Shown: piece after piece, positions 4,391 to 34,663 of the stretch | How positions within the stretch are numbered: position 1 is the stretch's first letter | How the letters are laid out: the number at the start of each line of letters is the position of its first letter | NCBI GenBank assembly: GCA_018238545.1 | Contig: JABCTC010000034.1 | Location: 1-38,192, forward strand | Source: Candidatus Heimdallarchaeota archaeon | GTDB lineage: Archaea > Asgardarchaeota > Heimdallarchaeia > Heimdallarchaeales > Heimdallarchaeaceae | Length of the DNA: 38,192 nucleotides | Direction: 5' to 3' | The notes under the pieces: generated by a model | Database searches by the model: none | What the model was told of the DNA's origin: nothing | The model's input: the letters and a program-made list of their open reading frames with translations, nothing else | Translations under genes and position numbers: made by a program

Positions 4391-5683
4391 ATGAATTTAG
4401 TTTCACCGATTTACACAAAACAAACCAAAAAACAGACAATCGAAACATTTTATGGGCTTAATAAGTCAGAAACTATCAAAGATGGGGAGTTTTCTGAAAT
4501 GGAGAACCTTTGTAGTGATCTTTTTCCTTACACTTATCCTAGAAACCCTAGAAATGTTGTAAGGGAACTGACAAAAGCCAACGGGTATTACATCTATGAA
4601 GGGGTTCATTACTATGTAGATGGTGTTTCATTCTATGTAGACGGTGTTTTAAAAGGAACTGTAACAGATAGCGAGAAACAAATCATAGATTTCAATGATT
4701 ATATTCTCATATTTCCTGATAAAAAAGTATACGATATAGTTGCTGACACTTTTGGAGACATGGCAACAGGAACTTATCCTGATGATACAGACTCCGTACC
4801 TGACATAGACTATGTATCGACTCATATGAATCGTATGTTCGGTATTAAAGATAGAGAAATCTATTCATCAAAACAAGGGCAATATGGAATATGGGCAGAT
4901 TTTAGCGGTCTTTTGACAGATTCATACGCAACAGACATAGAGTCGGGAACTTTCAAAGGTATGGCCACTTATCAAAATCACGTTGTTATGTTTACCGAAA
5001 AGGATATGTACGAATTATATGGCTATAATCCTTCGAATTACCAAGTGCAAAAAACAACTATGCAAGGGCTTGTTAACAATAAGTCGATTGTAGAACTCGA
5101 TTCAAGATTATATTTTGCAAATAAAGAAGGTGTTTATGTATTTGGTGGTGGAATGCCTAGACTTATAAGCAAGAAACTCAACATAGATGAATATTCAGAT
5201 GTGGTCAGTGGTACTGATGGTAAAAAACTATATTGTAGCATCTATGATGGCAACGTGTGGGGATTGTATGTATATGACCCCGAGAAAGACTTGTGGCACT
5301 ACGAAGATGCTTTACAGGTTAATTACTTCGTTAGAGATATAAATATTCTCTATGGGGTGTCTAATAACGATGTGATACAATTCGATTCAGGAACAGAAAC
5401 AATAGAGTGGAGTTTAACTACAAACATTTTATTGGACGAAACTTTGAGAAATAAGAAAATAAATAAAATTAATCTTTTGATGGATATGGATTTCGGTTCT
5501 TCAGTACATGTTTATGCAATTGCTGAAGAAAACGAAACTCTGATAGCAAGTTTTGAATCCAAAATAAACAAGGTTGTGAAACTGCCGGTTTCTTTGAAAT
5601 CGTTTGAAGAATATAAACTTAAAATCAAAGGTATTGGTAATGTTAAAATAAGGGCGATTCAAAGAGTTGTCATTATAAAATAG
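4391..5683 (+). CDS. Putative tail nozzle/stabilisation protein (beta-propeller, P22 gp10-like)
   Basis: FYGLN..DGEFSEMENL N-terminus, repeated beta-strand blades, position between adaptor and ejection proteins. Confidence 0.65.
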   Translation: MNLVSPIYTKQTKKQTIETFYGLNKSETIKDGEFSEMENLCSDLFPYTYPRNPRNVVRELTKANGYYIYEGVHYYVDGVSFYVDGVLKGTVTDSEKQIIDFNDYILIFPDKKVYDIVADTFGDMATGTYPDDTDSVPDIDYVSTHMNRMFGIKDREIYSSKQGQYGIWADFSGLLTDSYATDIESGTFKGMATYQNHVVMFTEKDMYELYGYNPSNYQVQKTTMQGLVNNKSIVELDSRLYFANKEGVYVFGGGMPRLISKKLNIDEYSDVVSGTDGKKLYCSIYDGNVWGLYVYDPEKDLWHYEDALQVNYFVRDINILYGVSNNDVIQFDSGTETIEWSLTTNILLDETLRNKKINKINLLMDMDFGSSVHVYAIAEENETLIASFESKINKVVKLPVSLKSFEEYKLKIKGIGNVKIRAIQRVVIIK

Positions 5684-28008: not shown

Positions 28009-28506
28009 ATGTCAACACTAACACTTAAAGGTACACCCTATCCGAAACAAATAGATTTTTTTATGAAGCGTAACAAGTTTGTAGCTTACGGGGGTTCCAG
28101 GGGTGGAGGTAAGAGTTGGGCAGGTAGAAGAAAAGGGTTGTTACTGGCCCTTAATCAAGATTATGCCGGTATGCAGATACTGTTATTGCGTAGAAGATAC
28201 AATGATGTATACGAGAATCATATCTTCCCACTGTCTTTAGAACTCAACAGATTTGTAAGTTACAATCAAAAAACCAAATCTTTCGACTTTCCATGGGGAT
28301 CACGAATAATATTCGGATATTGCGACCATGAGAAAGATGTGCTCCAGTATCAAGGTAAGGCTTATGACTGCATAATTTTAGAAGAAGCTACACAATTTAC
28401 GCAGTTTATGATAGAGTCGCTGATGATGTGTTTACGACCATCAGGACTTATGAAAAGTTATCTAAACTGGAGTCCTAGAATGTATTTCACGATGAACCCC
28501 GGGGGT
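28009..28506 (+). CDS. terL: Terminase large subunit, exon 1 (ATPase part)
   Basis: Walker A YGGSRGGGKS, Walker B ILEEAT; ends ..TMNPGG at the intron 5' splice site. Confidence 0.92.
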
Positions 28507-28524
28507 GAATAAGTATAGATATTG

Positions 28525-28533
28525 TGGTATAAT
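28525..28533 (+). promoter_or_regulatory. Intron-internal extended -10 promoter for the endonuclease gene
   Basis: TGGTATAAT followed by a GAGGTG RBS and ATG 28551. Confidence 0.6.
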
Positions 28534-28550
28534 ATAGTTGAGGTGATATT

Positions 28551-29147
28551 ATGAAAGGCTCAATTTATATTATAAGAAATACGATTAACGATAAAATTTA
28601 TTATGGTCAAACAAAGCGAAAATTAAAAATAAGGTTGAGGGAACACAAAAGCAGAGCAAATACTAAATCTAAAGATTATCTATTATATGAGGAAATGAAT
28701 AAAATAGGAATTAATAACTTTTATATAGAATTAGTCGAAGAAGTAGATCATGGCGAATTAGAAAAAATCGAAAGTAAATATATTAGAAGTTACATTGATA
28801 AAACTAAATTGTTAAATGTTAGATACGGGTTATCATATGAGTTGATAAGCAGAATAATTGTTCTCTATAAAAAAGGCAATACAATAAAAAATATATCGGC
28901 TAAATATCATATGTGTAAAAAAACAGTGTCAAAACTATTAAAAGAAAACAACGTCGTGATTACCGATTGGAACGAAAAACAAAAGATAAAATTCGATTTA
29001 GAAGAAGTAAAAAATATGTATTATCAGAAAAATATGACAGCAGATGAAATAGCTAAAAAATATAATACATCTGATGTTACTGTTGCTAAATATATGAGAA
29101 AAAACAACCTTGAATTAAGGCCAGCGATTAATCGTAAGTATCTATAA
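28551..29147 (+). CDS. Intron-encoded GIY-YIG homing endonuclease with C-terminal HTH repeats
   Basis: GSIYIIRNTINDKIYYGQT..RLREH..E..N GIY-YIG pattern; two HTH-like segments. Confidence 0.9.
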   Translation: MKGSIYIIRNTINDKIYYGQTKRKLKIRLREHKSRANTKSKDYLLYEEMNKIGINNFYIELVEEVDHGELEKIESKYIRSYIDKTKLLNVRYGLSYELISRIIVLYKKGNTIKNISAKYHMCKKTVSKLLKENNVVITDWNEKQKIKFDLEEVKNMYYQKNMTADEIAKKYNTSDVTVAKYMRKNNLELRPAINRKYL

Positions 29148-29384
29148 CGCCCTCTCTTATGGAAACATAAGAGTAATCAAATTGCGGAATTAAGCGGGAA
29201 GGCTAAGGGAAACTAAGCTAATCCGAACCGAAGGTTACACTAAGTGTAGTCAGGGGCAGAGCATAGACGATGAAAAGATATAATTCGTCCAAGAGTCCGC
29301 AACACCGTATAGGTGAAAAGATATGCCGAACTTATAGGAAACTATAAGAAGTAGAGGATAAAAAGCCTTTACGATAACAATTTG

Positions 29385-30293
29385 GTGGGTCACGCATACA
29401 TGAAAAGACTCTTTATAGATAAAGATTATCAAAGAAAAGAGAAACCTGAGAACTATTCATTTGTACCATCAACGGTGTTTGAAAACGATTTCATTATGGA
29501 GAACGATCCTACTTATGTCGAAGTGCTTGAGAACCTTCCTGAAAATAGAAGGAAAGCAATGCTTTACGGTGATTGGGACGTTTACGAAGGGCAATTCTTC
29601 ACAGATTGGCGAAATAATTCAGAGGGTTACATCGATAGAAGATATACCCACGTTGTAACACCATTCACAATTCCCGATAGTTGGACTAGATATAGAGTGA
29701 TGGATTGGGGTTACGCTAAACCATTCAGTGTTGGGTGGTATGCAGTTAACGAAGATGACCAAGCATTTCGTTATGCTAGGTGGTATGGTTGCACTGGTGA
29801 ACCTGATGTGGGACTTAGAATGACACCTGAACAAGTGGCGATGGGGATCAAAGAATATGAGGACGAGTACGAGAAAGGTCGCTATATCCACGGAGTGGCT
29901 GATCCAGCTGTATTTGCAACGGACACAGGAAAGTCGGTAGCAGAAACATTTCAGGAATGTGGGATATACTTCGAGCCAGCAGATAATTCGAGACTCACTG
30001 GGTGGAACCAAATGCGAGAAAGAATGAAGTTTGATAGCGAAGGTAGGGCTATGCTATATACATTTAGTGATGATAAGCATTTTATCAGGACTATACCAAG
30101 TTTATTACATGATGAAACTAAGGTAGAGGACCTAGACACTACACAAGAGGACCATATAGCCGATGAATGTCGCTATTTTTGTATGGCTAGACCAATTAAA
30201 GCAAGAATAGTTAGACCAACTAAACCAAAGATATACAATCCTTTGGAAACCGAACAAAAGATTAAACCGGGATTGGGATTTTTAAGACTATAG
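29385..30293 (+). CDS. terL: Terminase large subunit, exon 2 (nuclease part)
   Basis: VGHAYMKRLF, LYGDWD, MDWGYAKPFS, VADPA and EDHIADECRY motifs; spliced product would be 468 aa. Confidence 0.92.
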   Translation: MGHAYMKRLFIDKDYQRKEKPENYSFVPSTVFENDFIMENDPTYVEVLENLPENRRKAMLYGDWDVYEGQFFTDWRNNSEGYIDRRYTHVVTPFTIPDSWTRYRVMDWGYAKPFSVGWYAVNEDDQAFRYARWYGCTGEPDVGLRMTPEQVAMGIKEYEDEYEKGRYIHGVADPAVFATDTGKSVAETFQECGIYFEPADNSRLTGWNQMRERMKFDSEGRAMLYTFSDDKHFIRTIPSLLHDETKVEDLDTTQEDHIADECRYFCMARPIKARIVRPTKPKIYNPLETEQKIKPGLGFLRL

Positions 30294-30308: not shown

Positions 30309-32093
30309 ATGAAATTCAATGCTTTAGGAAAGAAGGTGAATATCACGATGGAGAACAACACAGAATCATTGTTTGGAGAATCGTCCGAACAAAAGAAAAT
30401 CATTTTAGAATCAGTGACTTTACTGAACAAGTATAAAGCTGGGAAAAAGAACCTAGAGGACAAACTTGTTGAGAACGAACAATGGTATAAGTCGCTACAC
30501 TGGGACTACATAAGAAATACCAAGTACGAGAACGACCCTGAACCAGTTACAGCTTATCTTTTCAGTACATTGGCAAACAAACACGCCGATGCAATGGACG
30601 TGTACCCAGGGGCAAACATACTCCCTAGAGAACAAGACGATGTAGAACTTGCTGATGTGTTATCCAAGATCATACCGTTAGAACTCGAATACAACGACTT
30701 CCACGATGTATGGAATCATCACTGGTGGGAAAAATTAAAGCATGGTTGTAGTATTGTAGGGGTCCACTATGATGCTGACGGTGGTAACGAGTTAGGTAGT
30801 GCTGTTATTAAAAATGTTGATGCTATGAGTATCTATTGGGAACCAGGGATAACAGATATTCAAGAGTCGGCAAATGTTTTTGTTGTTAAACTCGTCAGCA
30901 GAGATAGATTCGCTATGGAATATCCCGAAGCGGACCTAAAGAAAGCCGATAAATTGTTTGAACCTAAGAAATACATCACCGACGATACAGTAGATACAGC
31001 AGATTCGGTTTTAATAGTTGATAGATATAAAAAGATAGATGGCAAACTCCACCTATTAACATTTTGTGGAGAGAATTATTTAGAGAATACAGAGGACGAT
31101 GAAGAAAGTAACGGACTGTATGACCACGGTCAATACCCTTTCGTGTTTGATACTTTATTCCCTGAAAAAGATAGTCTTCATGGATTTGGTTATATCGATA
31201 TATTAAAGAATCCTCAAATATATGTCGATAAATTGGATCAAATCATATCTGTTAATGCTTTTACTACTGGTAGAAACAGATATTTAACTAAAGCCGATGG
31301 TTCTCTCAATGAAGAAGAACTACTTGATGTATCTAAAACATTAATTCATACAAAGGGTGGACTTGACGAAAGTAATGTCAGAGAATTCAAACAACAAGCT
31401 ATCGATCCTAGTGTATTCAAGCATAGAGATTCTAAGATTCAGGAACTGAAAGAGATTTCAGGGGCGAACGAATTTTCACGTGGTGAAGCCGGTGGTGGAG
31501 TTACAGCTGCAAGTGCTATTGCTATGATGCAACAGGCGTCAAATAAAATGTCTAGAGATATGATTTCCACAACTTATTCAAAGTTTAGCCAAGTAATTTA
31601 CTTGCAAATGGAGATAATTGCACAGTTTTATGATGTTGCTAGACCTTATAGAGTGGGCGAAGGAAATAAAAAAGAGTTTGTTACATTCAGCAACGAAGGA
31701 ATGGGCAATCAAGAGTTACCTCTTATAGAGGGCGTTGAACAGCAATATAGAAAACCTATATTTGATATTAAGGTAGTGCCTGAAAAACTATCACCGTTCA
31801 ATCAGATAGCTCATAACGAGTTGGCGAAAGAACTGTATAAACTAGGTATGTTTAACCCTGAACAAGCTATGGCATCTCTCACAGCTCTTAATATGATGAC
31901 GTTCGAGGGTAAAGAAGCAATCATCAAGAAGATAGAAGAAAATGCGCAGTTTATGCAACAACTTCAGATGATACCCCAACTTATGCAAGAGAACGAAAAA
32001 CTCAAAACAATCATACAAGGAACTACAGGACAAGACATGGGAATAGACATGGAGGCGATTGTTAATGGTCAAGGTGGAAATACACAAGGGTAA
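30309..32093 (+). CDS. Portal protein
   Basis: 594 aa directly after terL; YPFV, GVTAASAI and C-terminal Gln-rich helix typical of podovirus-like portals. Confidence 0.85.
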   Translation: MKFNALGKKVNITMENNTESLFGESSEQKKIILESVTLLNKYKAGKKNLEDKLVENEQWYKSLHWDYIRNTKYENDPEPVTAYLFSTLANKHADAMDVYPGANILPREQDDVELADVLSKIIPLELEYNDFHDVWNHHWWEKLKHGCSIVGVHYDADGGNELGSAVIKNVDAMSIYWEPGITDIQESANVFVVKLVSRDRFAMEYPEADLKKADKLFEPKKYITDDTVDTADSVLIVDRYKKIDGKLHLLTFCGENYLENTEDDEESNGLYDHGQYPFVFDTLFPEKDSLHGFGYIDILKNPQIYVDKLDQIISVNAFTTGRNRYLTKADGSLNEEELLDVSKTLIHTKGGLDESNVREFKQQAIDPSVFKHRDSKIQELKEISGANEFSRGEAGGGVTAASAIAMMQQASNKMSRDMISTTYSKFSQVIYLQMEIIAQFYDVARPYRVGEGNKKEFVTFSNEGMGNQELPLIEGVEQQYRKPIFDIKVVPEKLSPFNQIAHNELAKELYKLGMFNPEQAMASLTALNMMTFEGKEAIIKKIEENAQFMQQLQMIPQLMQENEKLKTIIQGTTGQDMGIDMEAIVNGQGGNTQG

Positions 32094-32379
32094 CTATGGA
32101 TATATAGAGATAACAGCTAAAAATCATGCAACAGACCCTATAGTATGTGCTTCAGTTAGCGCAATAATGTGGGGGTTAGCTGGAACGCTCTTGAACTTAG
32201 AACCAAAACCTGACATCAAAGAAATGATTTTGAATGATGGCAATTTTAAAATCGAAGTAAATCCGTTTGTTAATGGAGGTGATCAAAAATCTATCGATAC
32301 ATCATTCCTTTTCGCAGATGTATCCCTTAGCCAAATAGCGAAAAAGTACCCACAAGATATAGAGGTTGGATTCAAATAA
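32059..32379 (+). CDS. Prp-family (ribosomal-processing) cysteine protease, phage-encoded prohead maturation protease
   Basis: NHA..IVCASVSA His/Cys dyad pattern; C-terminal LSQIAKKYP; located between portal and scaffold. Confidence 0.8.
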   Translation: MLMVKVEIHKGNYGYIEITAKNHATDPIVCASVSAIMWGLAGTLLNLEPKPDIKEMILNDGNFKIEVNPFVNGGDQKSIDTSFLFADVSLSQIAKKYPQDIEVGFK

Positions 32380-32389
32380 CGCACATATG

Positions 32390-32418
32390 TTGTGTATATT
32401 GTAAAAGTTTAGTATAAT
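32390..32418 (+). promoter_or_regulatory. Promoter for scaffold/capsid operon
   Basis: TTGTGT-17 nt-TATAAT in a ~150-nt intergenic region. Confidence 0.6.
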
Positions 32419-32432
32419 ATTAATATAAAAAC

Positions 32433-32514
32433 AGATACATAAAGTATCTCGAAATAACTCGTAGGAGTTGACTCATAGGAAAGACTATAGAATGACTCGT
32501 AGGAAAGACTACAG
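32433..32514 (+). promoter_or_regulatory. Structured 5' leader with tandem hairpin repeats
   Basis: TGACTC-ATAG-GAAAGA-CTAT-AG and TGACTC-GTAG-GAAAGA-CTAC-AG, plus two upstream hairpins, abutting the RBS. Confidence 0.65.
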
Positions 32515-32530
32515 GTAAGGAGGTAAAATT

Positions 32531-33403
32531 ATGAATAAATATGTACTGCTTGATATAAACCTAGCATCTTTTGAAGGCGAAGGTGAAGAATCAGGAACAG
32601 CTGAAAACAGTAGTGTCGCTACTACAAGTACAGAAGAAGTGGTGTATGGCAAAGTTGATGAAACCAAAGTAGAGACTGGTGAAGAAACTACAGAGACTAC
32701 CAAAGGTGCAGAAACAGACCCCAACACTAAATTTGAAGAACTTATCAAAGGCGAGTACAAAGATGCTTTTGATAAACGTATGCAAGGAATCTTAGATAAG
32801 CGATTTAAGAACTCGAAGCAAACCGAAAGCGAACTCGGGGAAATTAAACCCGTTATCGAAATGCTCATGGAACGTTACGATGTAAAATCAGCTAAGGACC
32901 TATTCGAGAAAGTCGAGAAAGAAAGTATCGAAGAACTTGCTTATAAAAAGAATTTGACACCGGAACAATACAAAGAAAATAGAGAACTAGAAAGAAAAGC
33001 TAATCTGTATGACAAAAACATAACCCAACAAGAAGAGAAAGACATTCTTCAACAAAAGGTTGCCACTTGGTATAAACAAGCAGATGAAATGAAGGAAACT
33101 TATCCCGATTTCAATTTGCAAGATTGGTCTGATAATAAAGAGTTTTTAAATCTTCTTCATGCTAATGTTCCTGTTAAACAAGCGTACGAACTGTTGGACT
33201 TGGATAAAATCAAAGCCAATCTAGCGAGTAGCGTTAAGGAAAACACCGTGAAGGATATTCAAGCTAACAAAAACAGACCATCTGAAGTAGCTACCAAACA
33301 AGGCAAGGGTGTAGTTGTTAAATCAGATGTAAAATCACTTACTAAAGCAGATCGTGAGGAAATAGCGAAAAGATCGCTTAGGGGTGAGAAGATTTCTTTC
33401 TAG
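32531..33403 (+). CDS. Capsid scaffolding protein
   Basis: Acidic N-terminus, FEELIKGEYKDAF, YPDFNL, RPSE, and LRGEKISF C-terminus; directly upstream of the capsid gene. Confidence 0.85.
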   Translation: MNKYVLLDINLASFEGEGEESGTAENSSVATTSTEEVVYGKVDETKVETGEETTETTKGAETDPNTKFEELIKGEYKDAFDKRMQGILDKRFKNSKQTESELGEIKPVIEMLMERYDVKSAKDLFEKVEKESIEELAYKKNLTPEQYKENRELERKANLYDKNITQQEEKDILQQKVATWYKQADEMKETYPDFNLQDWSDNKEFLNLLHANVPVKQAYELLDLDKIKANLASSVKENTVKDIQANKNRPSEVATKQGKGVVVKSDVKSLTKADREEIAKRSLRGEKISF

Positions 33404-33424
33404 TCAATTAGAGAGGAGAAACAT

Positions 33425-34663
33425 ATGAGAGATTATTTTAAGAAATTATTAGATATTAGTTTAAGTTCGTTCGTAGTAACTCAAACAACTCTTTTAGGAG
33501 ATTTGTCCGATGAAATGAAAACGTATTACTCAGATTACATGATAGATGCTGCAGTTCCACTTTTAGTGCATGACCAATGGGCGCAGAAACACCCAATCCC
33601 TAAAAATGGTGGTAAAATCATAGAGTTTAGAAAGTATTCACCACTTGCTAAGGCTTTGACAGCTTTAACAGAGGGAGTTACACCAGCTGGTAACAGTTTA
33701 TCAATGAGTGTAATCAATGCAACCATCAAACAATACGGTGATTTCATTGAGTTATCTGACTTACTTTTATTAACTGCAATCGACAACAACTTGGTAATGG
33801 CTTCTAAACTATTGGGGAATCAATCAGGTGAAACATTAGATACAGTTTCTAGAGAAGTTATGAATGGCGGAACAAACGTTCAATATGGTGATGCAGATGT
33901 AGTTTCAAGATATTTATTAGTTGGCGGAGAGTCAACAGGTAATCATTATCTTGATGTAAACACTATCAGACGCGCTGTAAGAACTATGAAGAAGAATAAA
34001 GCTAAGAAAATCAATGGTGACTATGTTGCGATTATCAATCAAGATGCCGCATACGATCTTATGGGAGATTCTAAGTGGGAAGATTTCCACAAATACGCTG
34101 AACCTAGCGAATTGTATTCAGGTGAAATTGGTAGAATTCATGGTGTTAGATTTGTTGAAACAACTGAAGCTAAAATCTTTTATGCTGAAGATTTAGTTGA
34201 TGCCGCTAGGACTCTTACAGTTGCATCGTGTACTGCTAAAGTAGTTACTGTTGATGAAACTTTAACAGCTGCCGACCAACTTGCAATAGTAGGAAGATAT
34301 GTAATTATCGATGGCGAGAAACACTTAATTGCTTCTGCTGCTGCAAATACTATTACAGTAACAGATACTCCAACAGAAGTCCCAGTTGATGGCGATATTG
34401 TTTATCCTGGAGAAGCTGGTGCGAAAGGTAGAACTGTTTATTCAACACTTATCTTAGGTGCTGATGCTTACGGTACTACAGAAGTTGCAGGTGGAGGACT
34501 AGAGTTTATTGTTAAACAATTAGGTTCTGCCGGCAGTTCAGATGCCTTGAATCAAAGAGCAACATCGGGGTGGAAAGCTACGAAAGTTACTGAATTGTTA
34601 GTAGATACTTATCTGTTGAGAATTGAGAACACTACTACTTTCAACGACGAAGAAGCTAACTAG
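33425..34663 (+). CDS. Major capsid protein (N4-gp56 family)
   Basis: LS.EMKTYY, PIPKNGGKIIEFRKY, LTEGVTP, QYGDF, GEIGRIHGVRFVET, DALNQRATSGWK. Confidence 0.93.
   Translation: MRDYFKKLLDISLSSFVVTQTTLLGDLSDEMKTYYSDYMIDAAVPLLVHDQWAQKHPIPKNGGKIIEFRKYSPLAKALTALTEGVTPAGNSLSMSVINATIKQYGDFIELSDLLLLTAIDNNLVMASKLLGNQSGETLDTVSREVMNGGTNVQYGDADVVSRYLLVGGESTGNHYLDVNTIRRAVRTMKKNKAKKINGDYVAIINQDAAYDLMGDSKWEDFHKYAEPSELYSGEIGRIHGVRFVETTEAKIFYAEDLVDAARTLTVASCTAKVVTVDETLTAADQLAIVGRYVIIDGEKHLIASAAANTITVTDTPTEVPVDGDIVYPGEAGAKGRTVYSTLILGADAYGTTEVAGGGLEFIVKQLGSAGSSDALNQRATSGWKATKVTELLVDTYLLRIENTTTFNDEEAN

Follow-up and report, generated by a model that had tools for sequence, protein, structure and literature searches.

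A short-loop Prp-family protease and matching leaders on scaffold and capsid in the head module of a phage with a probable Clostridia host

Contig C113 of the 3.6-Mb metagenome-assembled genome (MAG) G000, analysed over its entire length of 38,192 nt and called the window here, carries a phage head module in which the gene for a Prp-family cysteine protease lies between the portal and scaffold genes (Table 1) and not between rplU (L21) and rpmA (L27). The scaffolding protein and the major capsid protein, which are unrelated, share a short N-terminal leader: the scaffold begins MNKYVLLDINLASF-EG and the capsid MRDYFKKLLDISLSSF-VV. An initial annotation of this DNA had described a phage Prp together with LLDI(N/S)L(A/S)SF leaders on scaffold and capsid, and all three open reading frames (ORFs) are indeed present at the positions given there. 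We consider it likely that the protease is a Prp with a short L2 loop that serves head maturation, that its specificity is probably not the one of the host Prp/L27 pair, and that enzyme and leaders mark one extreme in a continuum of Prp/leader pairs that co-evolve in a large family of phages of Clostridia. The protease gene belongs to the head module and its putative substrates are head proteins. The order portal–Prp–scaffold–capsid recurs in every related locus with full context, the scaffold gene always standing between those for Prp and capsid.

The window protease matches PF04327 (MEROPS C108) over positions 1–89 of 90, scoring 34.5 bits where the curated cut-off is 27; the genome search gave it 33.5 bits. 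An AlphaFold2 model built with 28 homologues (predicted local distance difference test score, 95.8) consists of the elements E-E-H-E-E-H-E, an order that agrees with the β-β-α-β-β-α-β arrangement of the Prp fold. Foldseek matched the model with probability 1.0 and template modelling (TM) scores of 0.66–0.80 to 7KLD, 7JVS, 2IDL, 4PEO, 1S12 and 2G0J, and every match outside the solved Prps had a TM score below 0.45. An alignment of 28 Prps shows no change at H21 and C28 and hardly any at A22 and S32. The dyad corresponds to H22 and C34 of the Staphylococcus aureus enzyme (SaPrp), Ser32 (C+4) to its Ser38 and Trp36 (C+8) to its Phe42; Asp24 is found at H+3. The spacing from His to Cys is 7, compared with 11–13 in relatives with the usual loop, and Asn20 replaces the usual Gly before the catalytic His (NHA for GHA). 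Both changes, which the initial annotation had pointed out, are real, and neither is unique to this phage. Thermotoga maritima TM1457 (PDB 1S12) has the same spacing of 7 and an Asp at H+3; it has been described as a 'non-L27-cleaving' Prp with a short L2 loop, a loop type typical of Prps that do not process L27, and its His is already in the active pose (PMC9405229).

Searching 1.84 billion representative proteins with a profile yielded 168 clusters; of the 150 nearest (clustered at 50% identity), about 96 have a His-to-Cys spacing of 6–8. The residue before the His in these short-loop clusters is Gly in 56, Asp in 22, Asn in 9, Glu in 5, His in 2, Gln in 1 and Ala in 1 (a few further Asn rows were mis-parsed as long-loop), which leaves about 40 of about 96 without Gly; members of long-loop clusters almost always have it. 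The subclade of the window enzyme shows the same pattern. Its four members are the window enzyme, P0006, P0007 and the Prp of a prophage in the Eubacteriales MAG G020 (hereafter the sister prophage), with sequences 47–79% identical; all keep the His, the Asp at H+3, the Cys, the Ser at C+4 and the Trp at C+8, and the residue before the His is N, Q, D or G. Because this position varies while the others are fixed, the Gly hinge appears to be dispensable once the L2 loop is short. NHA would then be a recurrent state and not a sign of inactivity, and a Gly before the His does not define the short-loop class. Profile, fold and catalytic residues place the window enzyme in PF04327, but its loop, hinge residue, substrate motif and gene context set it apart from the L27-processing type. 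Close relatives are few: P0006 and P0007 are the only two among 5.8 billion proteins, and tblastn found no match to the window Prp in 50,697 phage records.

The nine-residue stretch shared by the two leaders is identical at 7/9 residues and at 14/27 nucleotides, and this is the only pair to reach 7/9 among the 496 pairs of N-termini of window proteins, a combination that points to selection at the level of the peptide and not to DNA duplication. Neither leader has an alternative start upstream. Measured against the L27 substrate motif (N/D)LQ(F/L)F↓A(S/H)KK (arrow, cut), which they do not fit, the leaders keep Asn/Ser at P5, Leu at P4 and Phe at P1, and carry Ala/Ser for Gln at P3, Ser for Phe/Leu at P2 and Glu/Val for Ala at P1'. 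The predicted cuts after Phe14 of the scaffold and Phe16 of the capsid would leave proteins starting EGEGEE... and VVTQTT..., respectively. Comparison with relatives is consistent with these positions. Homologous scaffolds have a leader ending xLxxF at the same place, followed by a Gly/Glu/Asp/Ala-rich stretch (...NIDLKSF↓EGEG in the sister prophage). The leaders of capsid relatives stop at the aligned Phe, and the mature ends line up too (...LNLRLF↓DTQTT in lineage L003), and the leaderless capsid relatives L050, L051 and L054 begin just past the predicted capsid cut. Dozens of lineages have a leader at the aligned position. The two leaders of the window are likely substrates of the phage Prp. 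The internal virion protein of 430 aa (phrog_511, window 4391–5683) offers a third candidate, VSLKSF↓EE, some 25 residues before its C-terminal end; this site is not conserved in the sister prophage, was rejected as a substrate and is probably a chance resemblance.

We tabulated 73 distinct Prp/leader combinations in the phage family. In a large derived clade (L053–L124) the capsid leaders resemble that of L27 (for example NLQLF↓G, FLQHF↓A and DLQRF↓A) and the Prps are of the long-loop GHA kind. The basal lineages, to which the window belongs, have leaders of the form (N/D)L(R/H/S/N/T)(L/M/F)F↓(D/E) on both scaffold and capsid, and their Prps have long or short loops. In the derived Gln-type clade only the capsid is tagged and the scaffold is without leader, whereas the basal lineages tag both. 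The losses of Gln and of the P1' Ala, which had been put forward as peculiar to this phage, are on this comparison family-wide and are found with long-loop Prps too. What sets the window and the sister prophage apart is the Ser at P2 of the window leaders (NLASF↓E and SLSSF↓V), which recurs in the scaffold of the sister prophage (DLKSF↓E); the closest fully sampled relative, L003 (99% support in the Shimodaira–Hasegawa-like approximate likelihood ratio test), has a loop of 11 and LRLF↓D leaders. The suggestion that short loops go together with non-Gln leaders holds as a raw count (14/14 short-loop lineages). However, at least nine long-loop lineages are non-Gln as well, including the GHA lineages L003, L005, L025, L027, L079, L084, L111 and L118, and on the capsid tree the association comes down to 3–5 independent contrasts (sign test, p ≥ 0.5). 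The trend has the predicted direction, but the formal link was rejected as not significant.

Leaders and protease tend to occur together and to be missing together. A phage Prp is present in 24/25 non-Gln lineages examined (the remaining one is L081); L120 has the gene on a different contig of its bin, beside a portal gene. The leaderless relatives L050, L051 and L054 are without Prp. Isolated phages of the same capsid lineage with known hosts, Bacillus Pagevirus and Paenibacillus API480, lack both Prp and leaders and thus allow no comparison with a host. L27-like leaders are retained by many relatives that encode a Prp, and L067 and L113 combine canonical leaders with the absence of a phage Prp. 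The gene can also be found elsewhere in the genome: in the L104 and L114 phages (L216, G041:C9, and L217, G040:C113) it is located just upstream of the large terminase gene, and the capsid leaders end NLSKF↓G and NLAKF↓G.

When the two leaders of one phage are compared, scaffold and capsid match at 3.81 of the 6 variable positions; shuffled pairings give 2.42, and 0/20,000 shuffles reach the observed value (relatedness among the phages is ignored in this comparison). Even so, the leaders of two unrelated proteins change in step, which is what a single co-inherited enzyme acting on both would be expected to produce. On the side of the enzyme, the C+8 residue tracks P2: Trp occurs with Ser in the window subclade, Tyr/Phe with Leu/His elsewhere, and Glu/Asp with P2 Arg in 9/9 lineages of the DLQRF clade. 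The Trp–Ser and Glu/Asp–Arg pairings each count as one evolutionary event. A Glu or Asp at the Phe42 position looks like a salt-bridge partner for the P2 Arg. The lineages with this pairing are L053, L057, L058, L060, L061, L064, L066, L069 and L074, and their leaders read DLQRF↓A or NLQRF↓A. These patterns support co-evolution of protease and tags, and this part of the co-evolved private specificity that had been proposed for the pair is retained; the part concerning insulation from the host is considered below.

The known behaviour of SaPrp allows a mechanism to be suggested. There, the P3 Gln hydrogen-bonds Gly29 and Asp31 of the L2 loop and positions His22 (PMC9405229, PMC9261936), its replacement by Ala or Glu abolishes cleavage (PMC9261936, PMC9405229), and Phe42 packs on P1–P2 of the substrate (PMC9405229). 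We propose that the window Prp recognizes the shared leader of scaffold and capsid and cuts after the invariant P1 Phe. The loop segment that is ordered by the P3 Gln in SaPrp is missing here, so that the Gln would not be needed, and Trp36, at the place of Phe42, probably compensates for the small Ser at P2. Several points weigh against this proposal. The Glu/Val at P1' conflicts with the size limit at this position in SaPrp (PMC9261936, PMC9405229), and the window enzyme has Asn at the position where a G21A change inactivates SaPrp (PMC9405229). The pairing of Trp with Ser comes from a single lineage, and a contig break has removed the capsid leader of the sister prophage. The analysis establishes the family and fold of the enzyme, its conserved catalytic residues, the conservation of leaders among homologues, the co-variation and a bacterial host, probably one of the Clostridia; cleavage, the exact cut sites and the altered specificity are inferred.

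The Asn before the His could also mean that the Prp homologue is inactive or otherwise employed and that the leader is an uncleaved assembly or chaperone signal; the N-terminus of the scaffold of phage 80alpha is needed for assembly whether it is cut or not (PMC5744158). We regard this as very unlikely. The His, the Cys, the Ser at C+4 and the Asp at H+3 are conserved while the residue before the His varies across about 40 short-loop clusters, a short loop of the TM1457 type poses the His actively without a Gly hinge (PMC9405229), and leader and Prp are co-present and co-absent across relatives. Still less probable, in our view, is processing of the leaders by the host Prp, in the manner of 80alpha, with a phage copy that is superfluous. 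The leaders retain an L27-like Phe at P1, Leu at P4 and Asn/Ser at P5, and the canonical leaders of L067 and L113 without a phage Prp would fit such a scheme. However, SaPrp fails on P3 Ala (PMC9261936), the window leaders have Ala/Ser at P3, Ser at P2 and Glu/Val at P1', and nearly all of the non-Gln lineages examined carry their own enzyme. Since SaPrp does not accept the P3 Gln-to-Ala change, a canonical host Prp probably would not cut the window leaders. That the phage enzyme in turn would spare L27 has about an even chance. On balance we retain the reading in which the phage Prp processes both leaders, and the pair may plausibly be orthogonal to the host system.

Firmicutes are usually stated to have a long L27 plus Prp. 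We read the L27 N-termini in the MAGs holding 33 loci of the phage family. All 26 long L27 proteins of these candidate hosts end in Q-(F/L)-F↓A; an LxSF-type leader like those of the window, looked for as evidence against a separate specificity, occurs in none of them. In the MAG of the sister prophage, L27 has the leader NLQLF↓ASKK, and the gene for a long-loop host Prp adjoins rpmA. A short L27 starting MA(H/S)KKG was read in eight MAGs, none of which has a Prp gene beside the L27 gene, and genome-wide searches of four of the eight found only the phage Prp or none. The phages in these MAGs have non-Gln leaders in 8/8 cases, compared with 12 Gln and 11 non-Gln in the MAGs with long L27. Binning may mislead, as the window itself shows: one of the eight short-L27 MAGs is labelled Terriglobales (an order of Acidobacteria), and its contig is perhaps misbinned. 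For at least one of the eight loci (L052), the surrounding contig is a large chromosomal one of 225 kb. The seven short-L27 MAGs labelled Clostridia (G021, G024, G028, G030, G032, G033 and G042, with MAHKKG or MASKKG) each host a phage of the family (loci L129, L130, L151, L160, L144, L145 and L159). These data suggest that several lineages of Clostridia are without the L27 extension and Prp, contrary to the usual statement, and that their phages carry the whole maturation module themselves.

The same data bear on the idea that protease and tags were selected for orthogonality, in order to keep the host Prp off the phage proteins and the phage Prp off L27. The window leaders are unlike all 26 long L27 leaders, and the genome in which the sister prophage resides encodes a canonical L27 leader (NLQLF↓A) together with a host Prp of the long-loop type. 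SaPrp cannot cut after a P3 Gln-to-Ala change and the Clostridioides difficile Prp does not cut the S. aureus substrate (PMC9261936). We nevertheless judge such selection improbable. As driver of the divergence, insulation is the weakest step of the initial proposal and is not supported, because the same tag type occurs without the host system (8/8 phages of short-L27 hosts, where no host Prp was found and there is nothing to insulate from), because many phages with their own Prp keep L27-like leaders, which makes insulation no general need, and because 80alpha tolerates cutting by the host enzyme (PMC5744158). L27 must be cut anyway, so that action of the phage Prp on it need not harm, and the link between loop length and Gln is not significant after relatedness is taken into account. 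Relaxed constraint explains the divergence of the leaders at least as well. The distribution of leaders suggests that an own Prp makes the phages of this family independent of the host, and that the tag drifts once a fit to the host enzyme is no longer required.

A wider reading is more tentative. Short-loop phage Prps (spacing 6–8, often D, N or E before the His) would make up a large subfamily, and together with their Gln-less leaders, often with an acidic P1', they may possibly form self-contained pairs without cross-reaction with host Prp and L27, although we have more doubt than confidence in this. If it is true, such pairs would let phages mature their heads in Clostridia without long L27 or Prp, and nature would have supplied a series of small, mutually orthogonal protease/tag pairs whose specificity is determined for the most part by the L2 loop and the residue equivalent to Phe42.

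The MAG that holds the window is archaeal, with eS1 present. A genome search of G000 found no bL27, bL21 or further Prp, L21 and L27 genes are likewise missing from the window, and bL27 was found in 0/20 relatives of the MAG. These observations, together with a similar GC content (34.6% for the contig, 34.0% for the archaeal MAG), would suit a virus of the co-binned Asgard archaeon, a host without L27 or Prp. We give this explanation next to no credence, and it was rejected on gene content, Shine–Dalgarno sequences and relatives. The window encodes three wall hydrolases directed at peptidoglycan (a PG_binding_1+NAGPA enzyme, an M15 peptidase and an SLT transglycosylase) as well as DnaB, a bacterial single-stranded DNA-binding protein, RecT and a C5 methylase, and strong Shine–Dalgarno sequences precede its genes. 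Its tetranucleotide correlation to the MAG is the lowest among all contigs of at least 15 kb. No CRISPR (clustered regularly interspaced short palindromic repeats) spacer in G000 matches the window; the sole 26-nt match is low-complexity coding DNA without an array and was discarded. A scan of the window for sigma-70 promoters gave fewer matches than shuffled sequence.

All relatives reside in Clostridia genomes or gut viromes. Capsid relatives in phage records are gut 'Bacteriophage sp.' and Bacillus or Paenibacillus podoviruses. Bacterial genomes contain more than 570 capsid-related loci, the best 80 of which are nearly all in Clostridia MAGs, and several sit within contigs of 100–400 kb and are therefore prophages. 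The nearest relative, the sister prophage, is spread over two contigs of its MAG and flanked by cellular genes (ThiF, CobW, DsbA-like and PIG-L); its identity to the window is 67% for the capsid, 52% for the portal and 48% for Prp. No capsid relative above 67% identity was found in IMG/VR, metagenome or genome collections. The archaeal binning is an artefact, and the window is that of a podovirus-like phage of about 38 kb from a low-GC, peptidoglycan-bearing bacterium; by its relatives, the most likely host lineage is Clostridia, to which the host probably belongs. With respect to the Asgard MAG, the window is contamination, a misbinned 38-kb phage. Its ends overlap by 90 nt (85/90 identical), and it is therefore a complete phage genome, circular or circularly permuted.

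Phage-borne Prps with leaders are already common in Firmicutes phages, and the window is one more instance of the arrangement. As in those systems, the Prp gene is part of the head module and matching leaders are found on structural proteins; the enzymes there are long-loop GHA Prps with Gln leaders, whereas the window has a short-loop NHA enzyme and Gln-less leaders. The Oenococcus phages phiS13 and phiS11 likewise have an annotated 'peptidase' between portal and head genes. The capsid protease of Cp-1, of clan CR, is a related phage-encoded protease. Like the window phage, 80alpha has two unrelated head proteins with the same short N-terminal leader ending in Phe (PMC5744158). Its scaffold gp46 and capsid gp47 lose the leader to the host Prp, whereas the window phage brings its own, and its leaders copy L27 (NLQFF↓A and NLQHF↓A), whereas those of the window are without the P3 Gln, the aromatic residue or Leu at P2, and the P1' Ala. 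TM1457 shares fold, spacing and Asp at H+3 with the window Prp, but is cellular, has GHA and has FlhB as its proposed substrate, while the window enzyme is phage-borne with evident putative substrates encoded next to it. SaPrp (4PEO, 7KLD and 7JVS) has the fold, the His/Cys dyad, the Ser at C+4 and a P1 Phe substrate (predicted for the window) in common with it, and differs by a flexible 12-residue loop ordered by the P3 Gln, by the Gly21 hinge and by Phe42, in place of which the window has a spacing of 7, Asn20 and Trp36. The Rrp protease (bioRxiv 2026.08.10.744006) is an unrelated Ntn hydrolase and was set aside.

Of most interest are the series of co-varying pairs across the whole family and the Clostridia hosts without Prp. 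We found no published description of these variant tags in the literature. Prp is under study as a target for narrow-spectrum antibiotics, and the rules of its specificity come from one enzyme, SaPrp. Dozens of natural protease/tag pairs are available in the phage family, with P3, P2 and P1' changing along with the L2 loop and the Phe42-equivalent residue; they amount to a ready-made map of the determinants of Prp specificity. If the pairs are orthogonal, they would also be compact tag-removal tools of about 100 aa.

Table 1. Genes and predicted leaders of the head module, in window coordinates.
Feature	Position	Strand	Evidence
Portal protein, P22-like	30309..32093	+	PF16510, E 1e-11; phrog_156, E 1.3e-54
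Prp-family cysteine protease, 104 aa	32065..32379	+	PF04327
Scaffold leader Met1-Phe14, ends LLDINLASF	32531..32572	+	read directly
Scaffolding protein, 290 aa	32531..33403	+	phrog_13908, E 1.8e-51
Capsid leader Met1-Phe16, ends LLDISLSSF	33425..33472	+	read directly
Major capsid protein, HK97-fold family, 412 aa	33425..34663	+	phrog_1357, E 1.5e-79; PF13252

The 3' end of the portal gene overlaps the start of the Prp gene. The Prp ORF spans 32059–32379 (106 codons) with an alternative TTG start at 32059; the ATG at 32065, with GGAGG 9 nt before it, is the likelier start and gives the 104-aa protein. The scaffold gene is preceded by a strong, perfect Shine–Dalgarno sequence, AAGGAGGT, and the 150-nt spacer between the Prp and scaffold genes contains tandem repeats of about 22 nt at 32433–32524, just upstream of it. 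The large terminase gene (window 28009–30293) is split by an insert of about 870 nt, which carries an ORF with GIY-YIG plus helix-turn-helix domains (28551–29147); in the sister prophage the two parts of the terminase are contiguous (L141, 15131–16525).

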